NCBI GenBank assembly: GCA_958267355.1
Contig: OY279575.1
Location: 41,726-105,725, forward strand
Direction: 5' to 3'
Length of the DNA stretch: 64,000 nucleotides
DNA from: an uncultured Alphaproteobacteria bacterium
GTDB lineage: Bacteria > Pseudomonadota > Alphaproteobacteria > JALCBB01
The notes beneath the pieces are model-generated. The model was not told the DNA's origin, made no database searches, and worked only from the letters and a program-made list of their open reading frames with translations. Shown here piece after piece: positions 39,966 through 56,918 of this stretch; within the stretch, counting starts at the first letter, position 1, and the number at the start of each line of letters is the position of its first letter. Made by a program: the position numbers and the translations under genes.

Positions 39966-41468
39966 AAACTTGAGAGTTTGATCCTGGCTCAGAACGAACG
40001 CTGGCGGCAGGCTTAACACATGCAAGTCGAACGCGCTTTTCGGAGCGAGTGGCGCACGGGTGAGTAACGCGTGGGAACCTGTCCTTGAGTGGGGAATAAC
40101 CTTGGGAAACTGAGGCTAATACCGCATACTCCCTTTGGTTGTAGTGGCCGAAGGGGAAAGATTTATCGCTCAAGGAGGGGCTCGCGTCAGATTAGGTTGT
40201 TGGTGGGGTAAAGGCCTACCAAGCCTGCGATCTGTAGCCGGTCTGAGAGGATGGTCGGCCACACTGGAACTGAGACACGGTCCAGACTCCTACGGGAGGC
40301 AGCAGTGGGGAATCTTGGACAATGGGCGCAAGCCTGATCCAGCCATGCCGCGTGAGTGAAGAAGGCCTTCGGGTTGTAAAGCTCTTTCAGCGGAGACGAT
40401 GATGACGGTATCCGCAGAAGAAGCCCCGGCTAACTTCGTGCCAGCAGCCGCGGTAATACGAAGGGGGCTAGCGTTGTTCGGAATTACTGGGCGTAAAGGG
40501 CGCGTAGGTGGCGTTGCAAGCGGGTGGTGAAATCCCTGGGCTCAACCCAGGAATTGCCATCCGAACTGTGGTGCTCGAGTTCGGAAGAGGGTAACGGAAT
40601 TCCCAGTGGAGAGGTGGAATTCGTAGAGATTGGGAAGAACACCAGAAGCGAAGGCGGTTATCTGGTCCGAAACTGACACTGATGCGCGAAAGCGTGGGTA
40701 GCGAACAGGATTAGATACCCTGGTAGTCCACGCTGTAAACGATGTGTGCCAGCCTTGGGGAGATGTAATCTTTCTGGGGCGCAGCTAACGCGTTAAGCAC
40801 ACCGCCTGGGGAGTACGGTCGCAAGGCTAAAACTCAAAGGAATTGACGGGGGCCCGCACAAGCGGTGGAGCATGTGGTTTAATTCGATGCTACGCGAAGA
40901 ACCTTACCAGCTTTTGAAGTACCAGGTTTTGGGGTGAGAGATTGCTCCTTCAGCTAGGCTGGGCCTGGAACAGGTGCTGCATGGCTGTCGTCAGCTCGTG
41001 TCGTGAGATGTTGGGTTAAGTCCCGCAACGAGCGCAACCCTTGTCCTTAGTTGCCATCATTGAGTTGGGCACTCTAGGGAGACTGTCGGCGTCAAGCCGG
41101 AGGAAGGCGGGGATGACGTCAAGTCCTCATGGCCTTTATGGGCTGGGCTACACACGTGCTACAATGGTGGTGACAGAGGGTTGCAAAGGGGTGACCTGGA
41201 GCGAATCCTAAAAAGCCATCTTAGTTCGGATTGCACTCTGCAACTCGGGTGCATGAAGTTGGAATCGCTAGTAATCGCGGATCAGCATGCCGCGGTGAAT
41301 ACGTTCTCGGGCCTTGTACACACCGCCCGTCACACCATGGGAGTTGGTTTTACCTGAAGGCGGCGAGCCAACCATTTGGAGGCAGCCGACCACGGTAGGG
41401 TTAGCGACTGGGGTGAAGTCGTAACAAGGTAGCCGTAGGGGAACCTGTGGCTGGATTACCTCCTTTCT
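39966..41468 (+). rRNA. rrs: 16S ribosomal RNA
   Basis: Starts aaacttgagagtttgatcctggctcag and ends ggctggattacctcctttct. Conserved 515, 907 and 1492 regions are present, with alphaproteobacterial signatures. Confidence 0.97.
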
Positions 41469-41723
41469 GGGGTTGGGTATTCTGGGGTTTGGCTATGCTT
41501 GGGTCTTGACTGACTCGGGCTTGCTTGAGTTTTGATTGACTTGAGCTTTTAGCTTGAACTTTGGCACCTGACTTTAAAGAATTGCTGACTTTGTCTTACT
41601 TGAATGGCTTGGTGCTTTTTACGGAGCACTTGGGTCTTTTTTGTGAGACGAGCGAGGCATAAAAAACCTGCTCGACAGTTCGCTGTCCTCGTACCTTCTC
41701 CGTTGTGCCTACTCAAGACCCCC

Positions 41724-41753
41724 AAAAGCCGCCCCCCAAGGCGGCTTTTCTTT
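41724..41753 (+). terminator. Intrinsic terminator-like hairpin plus T-run downstream of 16S
   Basis: aaaagccgcc-ccccaa-ggcggcttttctttg. Nearly the same hairpin as the one after 5S. Confidence 0.6.
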
Positions 41754-41883
41754 GTCTCGTCGGGGGCAATTTGGCTCTACCCAGTCAAATTGCTGAAAAT
41801 TAGCCAATTTACGCTGAATTTCTGTGTGCAGCCCCTACATATGGGGGTTTAACATTAGAGTGTTAACAAATCAGAAGGGCAAA

Positions 41884-41962
41884 TAAGTAACATTTTTCCT
41901 CCTTTTTGTTACTTAATCTCTTGTAAGTAACATTTATGTTAGTTAAATTCATTTAAGTAACA
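41884..41962 (+). promoter_or_regulatory. Four copies of the 9-mer TAAGTAACA (three direct, one inverted) upstream of the Fic gene; putative operator array
   Basis: Direct copies at 41884-41892, 41925-41933 and 41954-41962. Inverted tgttactta at 41907-41915. Confidence 0.5.
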
Positions 41963-41991
41963 AAAACCACGAAATTCGTTAGTTAGCCAAA

Positions 41992-53749: not shown

Positions 53750-56499
53750 AACAAGTGCCAAAAAGGGCGTTCGGTGGATGCCTAGGTGCCAAGAGGCGAT
53801 GAAGGACGTAGCACTCTGCGAAAAGCCGCGTGTAGGTGAGAGCAACCGTTAATGCGCGGATCTCCGAATGGGGAAACCCGACCCGTTTAAGGGTTATCCT
53901 GCGACTGAATTCATAGGTTGCAGGAAGCAAACTCAGCGAACTGAAACATCTCAGTAGCTGAAGGAAAGGAAATCAAAAGAGACTCCGCTAGTAGTGGCGA
54001 GCGAACGCGGAACAGCCCAGTGGCTGATGCAAGACAACTGGAACAGGTCTGGAAAGGCCGACCGTAGAGGGTGATAGTCCCGTATGGGTAAGGCTTGCGT
54101 TAGTTCTTGCGTAGGGCGGGACACGTGAAATCCTGTCTGAACATAGGAGGACCACCTTCTAAGGCTAAGTACTCCTTGGCGACCGATAGCGAACCAGTAC
54201 CGTGAGGGAAAGGTGAAAAGCACCCCAATGCGGGGAGTGAAAGAGAACCTGAAACCGTACGCTTACAAGCAGCGAGAGCTCTTATGGAGTGATCGCGTAC
54301 CTTTTGTATAATGGGTCAGCGAGTTGATTTTGCAGGCGAGCCTAAGCCGTTAGGTGTAAGCGCAGCGAAAGCGAGTCTGAAGAGGGCGTTTAGTCTGCAG
54401 GATCAAACCCGAAACCAGGTGATCTAGCCATGGCCAGGCTGAAAGCGGAGTAATATCCGCCGGAGGGCCGAACCCACTAACGTTGAAATGTTAGGGGATG
54501 AGCTGTGGCTAGGGGTGAAAGGCCAATCAAACCTGGAGATAGCTGGTTCTCCGCGAAAACTATTTAGGTAGTGCGTCAGGTATTGCCGTCGGGGGTAGAG
54601 CACCGGATGGGCTAGGGGGGCGCGAGCCTTACCAAACCCAACTGAACTCCGAATACCGATGAGTATTGCTTGGCAGACAGACGGCGGGTGCTAACATCCG
54701 TTGTCGAGAGGGAAACAACCCAGATCGTCGACTAAGGTCCCGAAGTTGCAGTTAAGTGGGAAAGGATGTGGGAAGGCCAAGACAGCCAGGAGGTTGGCTT
54801 AGAAGCAGCCATCCTTTAAAGAAAGCGTAACAGCTCACTGGTCTATTAGCCGTCCTGCGCCGAAAATGTAACGGGTCTAAAACTGTGCACCGAAGTCACG
54901 GGCTTGTCTGCTGCTTAGGCGGCGGGCGAGCGGTAGCGGAGCGTTCTGTACGCTTGCGAAGCATCACCCGCGAGGGGATGTGGAAGTATCAGAAGAGCGA
55001 ATGCTGACATGAGTAGCGATAAAGGAGGTGAGAGGCCTCCTCGCCGAAAGTCCAAGGTTTCCTGCGCAAGGTTAATCCGCGCAGGGTGAGCCGGCCCCTA
55101 AGTTGAGGGCGAAAGCCGTAGACGATGGGAATCGGGTTAAAATTCCCGAGCCAGCGGAAAGTGACGGATGACGTAGATTGTACGCGCTAATCGGATTGCG
55201 CGTGCAGTTGGGTTGTTCCAGGAAATAGCTTCCGCATATGACCGTACCCGAAACCGACACAGGTGGACAGGTAGAGTATACCAAGGCGCTTGAGAGAACC
55301 ATGCTGAAGGAACTCGGCAACTTGCCTCCGTAACTTCGGGAGAAGGAGGCCCCATCTGTGGGCAACCACGGGTGGGGGGCACAAGCCAGGGAGTGGCGAC
55401 TGTTTATCAAAAACACAGGGCTCTGCAAAGCCGTTGAGGCGAAGTATAGGGTCTGACGCCTGCCCGGTGCCGGAAGGTTAAGAGGAGAGGTGCAAGCCTT
55501 GAATTGAAGCCCCGGTAAACGGCGGCTGTAACTATAACAGTCCTAAGGTAGCGAAATTCCTTGTCGGGTAAGTTCCGACCTGCACGAATGGCGTAACGAC
55601 TGCTCCGGTGTCTCCAGCGTGGGCTCAGCGAAATTGAATTCTCCGTGAAGATGCGGAGTACCCGCGGTTAGACGGAAAGACCCTATGCACCTTTACTACA
55701 GCTTTGCGCTGACGCCAGAATTTATCTGTGTAGGATAGGCGGGAGACTTTGAAGTTGCGGCGCCAGCCGTGATGGAGTCGTCCTTGAAATACCGCCCTGA
55801 TGGATTTTGGTGTCTAACCTTGTTCTGTTATCCAGAATGGGGACACCGTATGGTGGGTAGTTTGACTGGGGCGGTCGCCTCCTAAAGAGTAACGGAGGCG
55901 CGCAAAGGTGGGCTCAGTTCGGTCGGAAACCGAACGGCGAGTGCAATGGCATAAGCCTGCTTAACTGTGAGAGCGACAGCTCGAGCAGAGACGAAAGTCG
56001 GTCATAGTGATCCGGTGGTTCTGTGTGGAACGGCCATCGCTAAACGGATAAAAGGTACGCTAGGGATAACAGGCTAATCTCCCCCAAGAGTTCTCATCGA
56101 CGGGGAGGTTTGGCACCTCGATGTCGACTCATCGCATCCTGGGGCTGTAGCAGGTCCCAAGGGTATGGCTGTTCGCCATTTAAAGCGGTACGCGAGTTGG
56201 GTTCAGAACGTCGTGAGACAGTTTGGTCCCTATCTGCCGTGGGTGTTGGAAACTTGAAAGGGGCTGTCCCTAGTACGAGAGGACCGGGATGGACGTACCT
56301 CTGGTGTTCCGATTGTGGCGCCAGCCGCACTGTCGGGTAGCTAAGTATGGGAACGATAACCGCTGAAAGCATCTAAGCGGGAAGCGTGCCTTGAGACTGG
56401 GTTTCCTTTGAGGGTTGTTGCAGACTACGACTTTGATAGGCTTGGGGTGGAAGCGCAGTGATGTGTGAAGCTGACGAGTACTAATTGCCCGAAGGTTTG
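53750..56499 (+). rRNA. rrl: 23S ribosomal RNA (ends approximate, within about 10 nt)
   Basis: ggtggatgcctaggtgcc..gcgatgaaggacgt near the 5' end. GTPase centre, peptidyl-transferase and sarcin-ricin (agtacgagaggaccgg) regions are present. Flanking processing stem: 53714-53740 pairs with 56539-56565. Confidence 0.95.
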
Positions 56500-56743
56500 T
56501 TTCTTTTTCTCGCGCGCGCGTTTTTGTGTGCGTGAGGTGCATTCACCCGTTCCGCACGGCCTGCCTTGGCAGTCCAAAGCGAAATGGAATGGAAGATGTG
56601 AAATGAAAGATAAAGCGCAAAATCTAAAGCGTGGAAGATAAAGCGTGAAAGATGAAGCGTGGAAGATGAAGCGAAAGCTAGCTATAGAGCGTCCGCTTTT
56701 TTCTTGTGGTCAAACTCTTCTAGTTTTGTGGAGGGATTAGTTG

Positions 56744-56859
56744 GTTTGGTGGCTATGGCGGGAGATTAACACCCGATTCCATTCCGAACTCGGCAGTGAA
56801 AGCTCCCCGCGCCGATGGTACTCCGTCTTAAGGCGTGGAAGAGTAGGTCGCCGCCAAAC
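56744..56859 (+). rRNA. rrf: 5S ribosomal RNA
   Basis: gtttggtggctatggcgggag...ccgaactc...gtaggtcgccgccaaac, with an extended flanking stem gggattag/ctaatccc. Confidence 0.9.
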
Positions 56860-56891
56860 CTTCTAATCCCCCCACTTTTACCCCCCACTTT

Positions 56892-56918
56892 AAAGCCGCC
56901 CCCACAGGCGGCTTTTTC
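56892..56918 (+). terminator. Intrinsic terminator after 5S
   Basis: aaagccgcc-cccaca-ggcggctttttcc. Confidence 0.7.

Follow-up and report, generated by a model that had tools for sequence, protein, structure and literature searches.

A probably single rRNA locus, apparently split in place into ordered modules with strain-variable defence genes at their junctions, in an uncultured alphaproteobacterium

Unlinked rRNA genes, defined by a cut-off of >1,500 nucleotides (nt) between 16S and 23S and lying on average 410 kb apart, occur in Rickettsiales, Buchnera, Wolbachia, Helicobacter, Thermus and other bacteria (Brewer et al., 10.1101/705046). Host-associated bacteria with small genomes often belong to this class (PMC7761764), and in that article, with citation of Munson 1993, the 16S unit of Buchnera is credited with a promoter and a terminator of its own. 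Here we analyse the ribosomal RNA (rrn) locus of an uncultured alphaproteobacterium, which lies on a 64,000-nt stretch of contig OY279575.1 (assembly GCA_958267355.1; hereafter the window). The locus resembles the unlinked class in its 16S-23S distance of 12,281 nt, well beyond the cut-off, in the small genome that carries it, in its apparently single copy, and in signs of host association. Unlike most unlinked cases, in which the genes lie far apart and their order is lost, order and strand are kept here, and both spacer tRNA genes stand alone between cassettes of foreign-looking genes. A further difference is that the locus is seen as a population snapshot, with several states present at once, including a fully unlinked haplotype.

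In Borrelia burgdorferi, a few kilobases containing spacer tRNA genes and protein-coding open reading frames (ORFs) part 16S from 23S-5S, the ORFs in the gap are housekeeping genes, 23S-5S is duplicated in tandem, and one spacer tRNA gene is on the opposite strand. The present locus is similar in that 16S is parted from 23S-5S by kilobases with spacer tRNAs and ORFs; to our knowledge, strain-variable defence cassettes have not been described at the Borrelia rRNA locus. Strain-variable content inside an alphaproteobacterial rrn gene set has a counterpart in HVR2 of SAR11, which 10.1101/672428 presents as a single island of ~50 kb between 23S and 5S that varies by strain, carries genes for cell-surface modification and is thought to act against phage. 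Unlike HVR2, the locus described here has several small cassettes (1.3-4 kb), placed both within the 16S-tRNA-tRNA-23S gaps and at the two outer flanks, its cargo consists of restriction-modification (RM), SoFic and Imm_superinfect genes, and 23S-5S is compact, with no island inside it.

Hotspots of defence genes between conserved genes are known from E. coli (PMC10121019) and P. aeruginosa (PMC10250203), where protein-coding core genes are the anchors. Conserved flanks, variable defence cargo, presence or absence by strain and the frequent lack of a recombinase are shared with these hotspots; unlike them, the anchors here are the rRNA and tRNA genes of one rrn locus, and every junction appears to be a hotspot. 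Genomic islands that target tRNA genes offer another parallel, as inserts begin 0-2 nt from the 3' ends of tRNA-Ile and tRNA-Ala; unlike such islands, the window has no integrase or att duplication, and inserts also abut promoter-like and terminator-like edges where no tRNA lies.

The locus is best read, from its sequence, as an unlinked-type rrn locus of separate transcription units, a new variation on unlinked rRNA genes, SAR11 HVR2 and defence hotspots. A limited literature search returned no report of RM or other defence cassettes inside a 16S-23S spacer, which by itself does not prove novelty. What is new is the combination: a canonical gene order that two species retain across 8-12 kb, stranded spacer tRNAs, a respiratory gene fixed in antisense between them, a defence hotspot at every junction, and the coexistence in one sample of states that range from an 8-kb gap, which already exceeds the 1,500-nt cut-off, to full unlinking. 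Whereas unlinking has so far been inferred mostly from lineages at its end point, for instance Rickettsia and Buchnera, steps along the way can be seen here within one lineage, namely cassettes piling up at junctions, apparent start and stop signals for each RNA gene, and one 16S unit inverted away. That rrn junctions can be defence hotspots adds to the places in which new defence systems may be sought. Long-read amplicon methods that span 16S, the internal transcribed spacer and 23S would miss this lineage, and the predicted transcript ends are precise, so that the locus is suited to direct mapping.

Conserved RNA genes and exchanged junctions

The window, here called haplotype A, is part of a circular HiFi contig of 1,859,045 bp (ENA ERZ19433661 hifiasm.ptg000096c; circularity is read from the suffix 'c', the hifiasm label for circular contigs). 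Rfam and ARAGORN place 16S (39966-41466; RF00177, 1546 bits, full length, model positions 1-1533), tRNA-Ile(GAU) (48077-48153), tRNA-Ala(UGC) (50729-50804), 23S (53748-56505; RF02541, 2652 bits, full length) and 5S (56745-56859; RF00001, 86.9 bits) in canonical order and all on the + strand across 17 kb, and a relaxed Rfam scan of the spacers found nothing beyond the two tRNAs. A first-pass annotation, made by a model from the sequence alone, had described this order with greatly expanded spacers, and the gene calls bear it out: the gaps measure 6,610 nt (16S to tRNA-Ile), 2,575 nt (tRNA-Ile to tRNA-Ala), 2,943 nt (tRNA-Ala to 23S) and 239 nt (23S to 5S), and eight intact ORFs lie between 16S and 23S. 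Order and strand are thus those of a canonical linked operon; the spacer of at most 1,500 nt, free of protein genes, that marks such an operon is absent. Pfam agrees with the spacer contents described at first, which were a Fic protein followed by repeat and immunity-like membrane proteins, a quinol-dependent nitric oxide reductase (qNOR) on the opposite strand, and a methyltransferase.

Searches for homologues of qNOR, RecA and an ORF inside 16S recovered further contigs of the same metagenome, which together with the window represent at least eight haplotypes (A-H) of two sister species. Species 1 comprises A-E, with 16S at least 99.9% and 23S 100% identical to the window; species 2 comprises F-H, with 1441/1501 identical positions in 16S (96%, F) and 87% identity in RecA. 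Seven of the eight haplotypes keep 16S, tRNA-Ile, qNOR on the opposite strand, tRNA-Ala and 23S in this order as far as their sequence reaches, the 23S side being visible in A, B and F only, while the cassettes differ at every junction between haplotypes. The skeleton is shared by both species and therefore predates their split. The call for comparison with relatives made in the first-pass annotation is answered by this pattern of one skeleton with changed cassettes, and its suggestion that the spacers act as landing sites is supported, since the eight haplotypes carry different cassettes at the same junctions.

Haplotype B (circular, 1,869,874 bp) matches A in 16S at 1500/1501 positions and in 23S at 2758/2758, and has an identical tRNA-Ile. 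Its gaps from 16S to tRNA-Ile, tRNA-Ile to tRNA-Ala and tRNA-Ala to 23S are 4,935, 5,644 and 518 nt. It has SoFic, three Imm_superinfect (hereafter Imm) genes and qNOR, lacks a 2.1 kb piece of the repeat protein (43705-45847 of the window), carries one extra Imm gene, and has before tRNA-Ala a B-only cassette of 3.2 kb with an MT-A70 methylase, a MunI-like endonuclease and three ORFs. In haplotype C (circular, 1,902,193 bp), recA stands directly upstream of 16S, 1.3 kb is inserted after tRNA-Ile, and a gene for a UvrD-like helicase follows tRNA-Ala on the opposite strand. SoFic is replaced in D by a gene for a type IIG RM enzyme (DrmMI-like; 1,382 amino acids (aa), 4.1 kb) on the opposite strand, and is missing from E, which has a 995-aa repeat protein, eight Imm genes and 8,970 nt between 16S and tRNA-Ile. 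In species 2, haplotype F (circular, 1,840,849 bp) has SoFic and a pair of Imm genes between 16S and tRNA-Ile, three ORFs and then the reverse-strand qNOR between tRNA-Ile and tRNA-Ala, and 23S after tRNA-Ala, with gaps of 2,685, 4,634 and 708 nt and a 16S-23S distance of 8,180 nt, and G is like F with a C5 methylase added between qNOR and tRNA-Ala.

Taken junction by junction, 16S is followed by SoFic, by the type IIG RM enzyme or by nothing; Imm paralogues number 2 to 8 per haplotype; and the RM systems on either side of tRNA-Ala differ. Upstream of 16S stand an HNH gene and a C5 methylase (B, D), membrane proteins (A, E) or nothing (C), and downstream of 5S, A and B have different RM genes, B with another methyltransferase and a 206-aa ORF. 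Variable cargo between conserved flanks in related genomes is the hallmark of a hotspot. The cassettes turn over within species, and the fully unlinked state is already present in the population, as haplotype H: here the Imm array and recA-alaS border the 16S-SoFic block in the arrangement expected from inversion of the block, and the ~9-10 kb to each side contain neither a tRNA gene nor 23S. We take H to be a haplotype with fully unlinked rRNA genes and an inverted 16S block. Together with the order kept in both sister species, it supports the early view of the locus as an intermediate between linked and unlinked rRNA genes.

The qNOR gene (48179-50488, - strand; Pfam NorB_cytochrome_c-like and COX1) stands apart from the cassettes. 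It occupies the same site in the same orientation in A, B, C, F and G, and its guanine-plus-cytosine (GC) content is 55-58%, against 41-47% in the first and third gaps and 52-55% in the window. Because its GC content is native-like and its place is the same in both species, qNOR is an old, fixed resident of the locus rather than a current or recent cassette, and its initial listing among the cassettes did not hold. Its closest relatives outside the lineage, from Sphingomonadaceae, are ~72% identical. Another copy of qNOR, with 83% identity and broken by a frameshift into 138 + 655 aa, is present at 9604-11968 of a different contig of the same metagenome (L042, ERZ19433661 hifiasm-meta.s761.ptg000842l), where it adjoins tRNA-Phe among housekeeping genes; that site could be the ancestral chromosomal one, or the gene could belong to a different organism.

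The limits of homology were located by BLAST of each haplotype against the window. Homology breaks at 39520-39572, directly before the -35 box of the candidate 16S promoter, and begins in the sister species at 39572. It ends with D and E at 41753/41755, the last T of the terminator-like element after 16S. In C, F and G it stops at 48155, the 3' end of tRNA-Ile, and resumes at 48177, the end of qNOR, with 1.3-2.1 kb inserted between; in C and F it stops exactly at 50804, the 3' end of tRNA-Ala. It breaks again at 53331/53333, 16-19 nt before the TTGACA of the candidate 23S element; in place of the A-only cassette (50805-53330), B has ~96 nt and F ~233 nt of unrelated DNA. Finally, A and B part at 56917, the end of the 5S terminator. 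These breaks appear to coincide with the functional edges of RNA modules, and the comparison of haplotypes identifies the junctions, at the sequence level, as hotspots for which the RNA modules are the conserved anchors.

Separately, the block of A upstream of 16S that holds an intimin-like gene (11864-16322) is in the opposite orientation in F (L055 2-4453), which suggests an inversion of roughly at least 25 kb with one break point at the 16S promoter.

Candidate start, stop and processing signals

The best promoter-like site in the region, TTGACA-16-TAGGAT (39573-39600, + strand, 10 of 12 consensus matches), stands upstream of 16S. It is invariant in the seven haplotypes for which upstream sequence was captured (that of G lies outside the extracted stretch), whereas the DNA directly upstream of it falls into four or five unrelated contexts in the same seven. 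The leader contains a boxA-like motif, GCTCTTGACCA (39724-39734, +), read from the sequence and invariant in eight haplotypes, followed by the 5' strand of a predicted processing helix (39737-39772) whose 3' strand lies beyond the gene (41675-41710). The two strands, taken as pieces of 65-80 nt, cofold into ~33 bp with a free energy of -66 kcal/mol, and in at least three base pairs of the helix both partners differ, in a compensatory way, between species 1 and species 2. No block of the 16S 3' flank is better conserved in the eight haplotypes than the one that holds the 3' strand, which is the ancestral 5' part of the spacer. A helix sought in only the 125-135 nt next to the mature 16S ends was weak, the true one lying farther out.

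A terminator-like hairpin with a T-run follows at 41724-41753 (+), with a 10-bp stem of six GC pairs and then TTTTCTTT. The processing helix is wholly upstream of it and ends 14 nt before it, so that the 16S precursor would be complete before the terminator. Hairpin and T-run are present in nine of nine sequences in at least five stem or loop versions, the pattern expected if function rather than sequence were conserved. A similar element (56892-56918, +) ends the 23S-5S unit; the near-identity of the two, noticed at the outset, amounts to 92% over 25 nt, and the 64 kb contain these two matches and no others, against none expected by chance. In C, the hairpin of the 5S terminator (GCCGCCCCCACAGGCGGC plus T-run) recurs in identical form 20 nt after tRNA-Ile (L044 15641-15665 compared with 56895-56918 of the window). 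This discrete block of ~21 nt is absent from the otherwise homologous sequence of F and G and looks like a copied-in terminator hairpin.

Before 23S, a TTGACA box had been placed at 53349; the box exists, one base further on (53350-53355), as part of a candidate promoter TTGACA-17-CATTTT (53350-53378, +) that is conserved in A, B and F. These haplotypes share the element and ~400 nt after it, which include a boxA-like GTTCTTGC..ATCG and the 5' strand of the 23S helix, while the DNA upstream of ~53331 is unrelated among them. In the window, the boxA-like motif of the 23S leader reads GTTCTTGCTTATCG (53509-53522, +), again read from the sequence, and is conserved between species; the likeness of GCTCTTGACCA and GTTCTTGCTTATCG to boxA is judged against what we take to be the E. 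coli consensus. The leader/trailer helix of 23S (53639-53667 with 56587-56615, +) is an inverted repeat that cofolds. This processing stem is as real as the early description had it and has no weight as the argument for independent transcription that it was then thought to be, such stems being normal in linked operons too. The region upstream of 23S is not a recognizable duplicate of the 16S promoter region (local alignment score 32, against 33 +/- 5 for shuffled sequence), and MAFFT also misaligned the two.

The 72-nt flank 5' of tRNA-Ile (48005-48076, +) is near-invariant in six haplotypes of both species, above the conservation of the coding DNA that precedes it. It contains a weak promoter-like TTCACG-18-TATGCT (8 of 12 matches, below the scan threshold), which we infer to be a possible promoter of tRNA-Ile.

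Some features of the rRNA genes themselves may be recorded here. The 3' end of 16S (41455-41466) is GGATTACCTCCTTT in both species and GGATCACCTCCTTT in the other alphaproteobacteria compared, the anti-Shine-Dalgarno CCUCC being unaltered despite the deviant end. Directly 3' of 16S (41468-41548) is a tandem repeat with a 26-nt unit whose copies vary by strain, fewest in A and most in C, and between 23S and 5S (56604-56673) are five copies of a 14-nt unit (TGGAAGATGAAGCG-like). The 23S-5S gap has no ORF in either A (239 nt) or B (604 nt); B (L043 reverse complement) has a truncated extra 5S, the first ~49 nt, at 19338-19404, ~240 nt upstream of the real 5S (19576-19690). The 5S genes of A and B are identical at 104/115 positions, though their 23S genes are identical.

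Separate units, a single operon or other origins

We consider it quite probable that this locus, the only rrn locus seen, has been split in place into ordered, self-contained modules whose junctions are strain-variable hotspots for defence genes. In the arrangement proposed, a 16S promoter would drive a unit of leader, 16S and trailer, in which leader and trailer form the processing helix, up to the intrinsic terminator; tRNA-Ile would be expressed from its own weak promoter or by read-through of the Imm genes upstream, and tRNA-Ala from whatever stands upstream of it; and a 23S promoter would drive 23S and 5S up to the second terminator. The antisense qNOR between the two tRNAs would be a fixed resident. 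Cassettes would most likely be swapped among co-occurring strains by homologous recombination, with the near-identical RNA genes and qNOR as arms, supplemented by occasional illegitimate insertions or insertions at tRNA 3' ends. Such insertions would be tolerated because each module would have its own start and stop signals, and inversions of the H type would then finish the unlinking. It is inferred from their sequence that the promoter- and terminator-like elements start and stop transcription.

It is conceivable, if somewhat unlikely, that the locus goes further and acts as an integron-like gene shuffler without an integrase, in which the rRNA and tRNA genes, nearly identical among co-occurring strains and even among sister species, are homology arms for swapping the defence genes between them, selection for exchange, in addition to genetic drift, keeps the modules apart yet ordered, and the GCCGCCCC...GGCGGC-T(n) hairpin is a portable terminator that seals RNA units after insertion.

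A number of observations weigh against separate, self-contained modules. The -10 of the candidate 23S promoter has only three of six matches and was missed by the consensus scan; the critical bases of a -10 box, A2 and T6, are kept. Promoter scans gave no convincing promoter for either tRNA, and because of this the expression of the tRNAs by read-through of upstream genes is a real possibility; in B the 5' flank of tRNA-Ala is replaced, and an 86-aa ORF ends 16 nt before the gene. The boxA-like motifs in both rRNA leaders could support antitermination and with it some read-through, which would be tolerated, as nearly all cassette genes of A share the rRNA strand. With regard to the exchange of cassettes, no recombinase domain was found in the spacer ORFs of A, B, C, D and F, nor any transposase, and the window holds no second copy of either tRNA 3' end with three or fewer mismatches and no clear att repeats. 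Finally, all haplotypes were drawn from the one metagenome, ERZ19433661, and the single copy of the locus appears from a proxy, a spurious ORF inside 16S, that speaks for 16S and not for 23S or 5S.

The tRNA promoters that fail to appear, the boxA-like motifs and the shared strand of most cassette ORFs, together with the canonical order of five RNA genes on that strand, would also favour a single operon, in which transcription starts at the 16S promoter, is modified at boxA and reads through the hairpin and cassettes for 17 kb, RNases then excising the rRNAs and tRNAs. We regard this as unlikely. A strong hairpin with a T-run stands after 16S in all nine sequences despite changes of sequence, and rrn antitermination counters mainly Rho-dependent, not intrinsic, termination. 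Wherever the sequence of a haplotype extends to qNOR, the 2.3 kb of this gene are antisense, and so are the 4.1 kb of the RM gene in D; C has a terminator directly after tRNA-Ile; 16S is inverted in H; and conservation before 23S begins at the -35 box. The initial judgement that co-transcription of the locus is improbable is thus strengthened by the terminator-like hairpin present after 16S in all nine sequences, the conserved promoter-like elements, the antisense genes and the inversion in H, all of them features of sequence.

The cassettes might alternatively be the remains of one integrative mobile element (a prophage, integrative conjugative element or genomic island) whose point of entry was a tRNA gene and which has since decayed. 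Cassettes do abut the 3' ends of both tRNAs, Imm_superinfect and RM genes are common phage cargo, and a 9-nt repeat of the tRNA-Ala 3' end (GCTCCACCA), found ~37 nt downstream of tRNA-Ala in B and F, resembles an att scar. Such an element should leave an integrase beside the tRNA and, where the insert ends, a second copy of the tRNA 3' end in direct orientation; no tRNA-fragment repeat occurs in the window, the cassettes of all haplotypes yielded neither integrase nor transposase nor phage structural genes, and no recombinase turned up among the cassette ORFs without annotation. Cassettes are moreover present or absent independently at six junctions, which fits many small events rather than one element, and we hold a single element to be very improbable. 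The 9-nt repeat, a 39-bp direct repeat around the methyltransferase of A and a ~160-bp repeat at cassette edges (both described below) are possible traces of arrival.

That the locus is a decaying, unexpressed remnant in a cell that relies on another, intact operon is more doubtful still, and nothing in the sequence examined spoke for it. Both 16S and 23S match their Rfam models over the full length with high scores, 23S and 16S of A and B differ at none and one position while the neighbouring DNA differs by 2-8%, and the processing helices are intact and carry compensatory changes. As a marker for the gene we used a spurious 42-aa ORF called inside 16S (40402-40530), which also served to fetch contigs with this 16S; it occurs at 10 places on 10 contigs, one per contig, all from ERZ19433661. 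Because it occurs once per contig, 16S appears to be single copy in each circular genome as far as this proxy shows, a result that also meets the wish of the first-pass annotation for a comparison of rrn copies.

An assembly artefact, with strains collapsed or joined across conserved rRNA genes, has a suitable setting in the many close strains with identical 23S and near-identical 16S and is scarcely credible, since the long-read check proposed at first found three read-length hifiasm-meta contigs of 11-19 kb that are 100% identical to the window and cover 39031-60488 (39031-52981, 16S to methyltransferase; 44398-55825, repeat proteins to 23S; 48043-60488, qNOR to PhoX), the circular contigs of A, B, C and F were obtained from both hifiasm and hifiasm-meta, and the skeleton recurs in a sister species whose flanks, 78-91% identical, are not confusable with those of species 1.

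Cassette genes, host lineage and neighbouring genes

The SoFic cassette (41756-43345, +) has a GC content of 41-43%, against a baseline of 52-55%, and contains a Fic ORF (41992-43176) preceded by an inverted repeat (41884-41985). The ORF matches PADLOC SoFic PDLC03963 over almost the full profile (E 3.7e-114, positions 5-359 of 361) and Pfam Fic_N and Fic, and its Fic motif, HxFx(D/E)GNGRxxR, is intact as HPFLDGNGRLGR. It is followed by an array of repeat and Imm_superinfect membrane proteins (43602-48004, +) of 781, 324, 159 and 146 aa, with 48-nt repeats in the coding sequence and PF14373 (Imm_superinfect) in three of the four. The first (43602-45947, +) combines 16-aa repeats with two Imm_superinfect domains, the second (45956-46930, +) consists of 16-aa repeats, and the last two (46976-47455 and 47564-48004, +) are Imm_superinfect proteins. 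The 781-aa and 324-aa proteins are secreted or membrane proteins with ~25 copies of a 16-aa unit, the consensus of which is roughly K-x-L-E-D-S-x-E-F-Q-E-L-K.

The A-only cassette (50805-53330, +) carries a 155-aa ORF and a DNA methyltransferase, as first annotated. The ORF (ORF155, 50882-51349, +) has no Pfam match, and the description 'Cys-rich' was generous for a protein with four Cys (CxCGH...C...C). The methyltransferase (51533-53245, +) is of the N6/N4 type, with a weak C-terminal Mrr-like match and a PADLOC match to type II/III methyltransferases, and has on either side one copy of a 39-bp direct repeat, 77% identical (51522-51560 and 53289-53327). The variable 3' flank of the locus (56946-59043, +) comprises ORF109 and, by Pfam and PADLOC, genes for a methyltransferase of type II (57528-58400) and for an endonuclease like Eco47II (58378-59043); a look-up of ORF109 gave matches on contigs of haplotype A only and did not reach the 23S side of other haplotypes. 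Defence genes are therefore clustered in the window, as SoFic, a type II methyltransferase and a methyltransferase with an Eco47II-like endonuclease, and sister haplotypes add the MunI-like and type IIG RM systems.

An intergenic repeat of ~160 bp lies at cassette edges in the window (43319-43482), with partial copies at 37728-37796, 59053-59090 and 11330-11354, and an inverted copy of 166 bp occurs at the left edge of the B-only RM cassette (L043 reverse complement 12513-12673). It is rich in runs of C and G, stands at the ends of foreign-looking genes and has no Rfam match; possibly it represents a small element that is mobile or prone to recombination.

The 16S of this lineage is at most 86% identical to that of any of 37 GTDB loci gathered by a scan with a 16S 3'-domain signature, and its named RecA relatives (Aquibaculum, Fodinicurvata, Limibacillus, Kiloniellales) are 76-77% identical. 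The host is therefore judged, from these identities, to be a deep alphaproteobacterial lineage; a neighbour-joining tree of 16S places it loosely near Paracaedibacteraceae and Odyssella. Fourteen spacer and flank proteins of the window, RecA included, had no counterpart in the 37 GTDB 8-kb loci, and two scans of JGI metagenomes with lineage-specific 16S strings gave no match. The window encodes an inverse-autotransporter-like protein of the intimin/invasin family and a sister-species contig a CesT-type chaperone, which hints at host association.

Stretched or broken rrn loci were also seen in other small-genome alphaproteobacterial metagenome-assembled genomes from long reads in GTDB (loci L019, L036, L010, L025, L034, L040 and L029 of the scan). 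In L036, 2.7 kb separates 16S from tRNA-Ile; in L019, 16S and tRNA-Ile are followed by rho; and in L025, L034, L040 and L029, the 3-6 kb next to 16S contain neither a tRNA gene nor 23S. The occurrence of unlinked or stretched loci in several genomes of the scan implies that the general phenomenon is not rare.

Two housekeeping proteins encoded upstream of 16S are unusual. The alanyl-tRNA synthetase (30576-34076, -) has a TPR block between its editing/SAD and DHHA1 domains that varies by strain: the protein has 1166 aa (A), 1172 aa (C), 1058 aa (D) or 1038 aa (F), as opposed to 914 aa without TPR in B and E, and 895 aa in G; a size-polymorphic insert of this kind is unusual for a housekeeping aminoacyl-tRNA synthetase. 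RecA (34261-35556, -) has 431 aa, where ~350-360 aa are typical, and ends in a low-complexity tail of ~70 aa made of Ala, Gly, Thr and Asp; the RecA proteins of the sister species (444-447 aa) align with it over the full length, the tail included.

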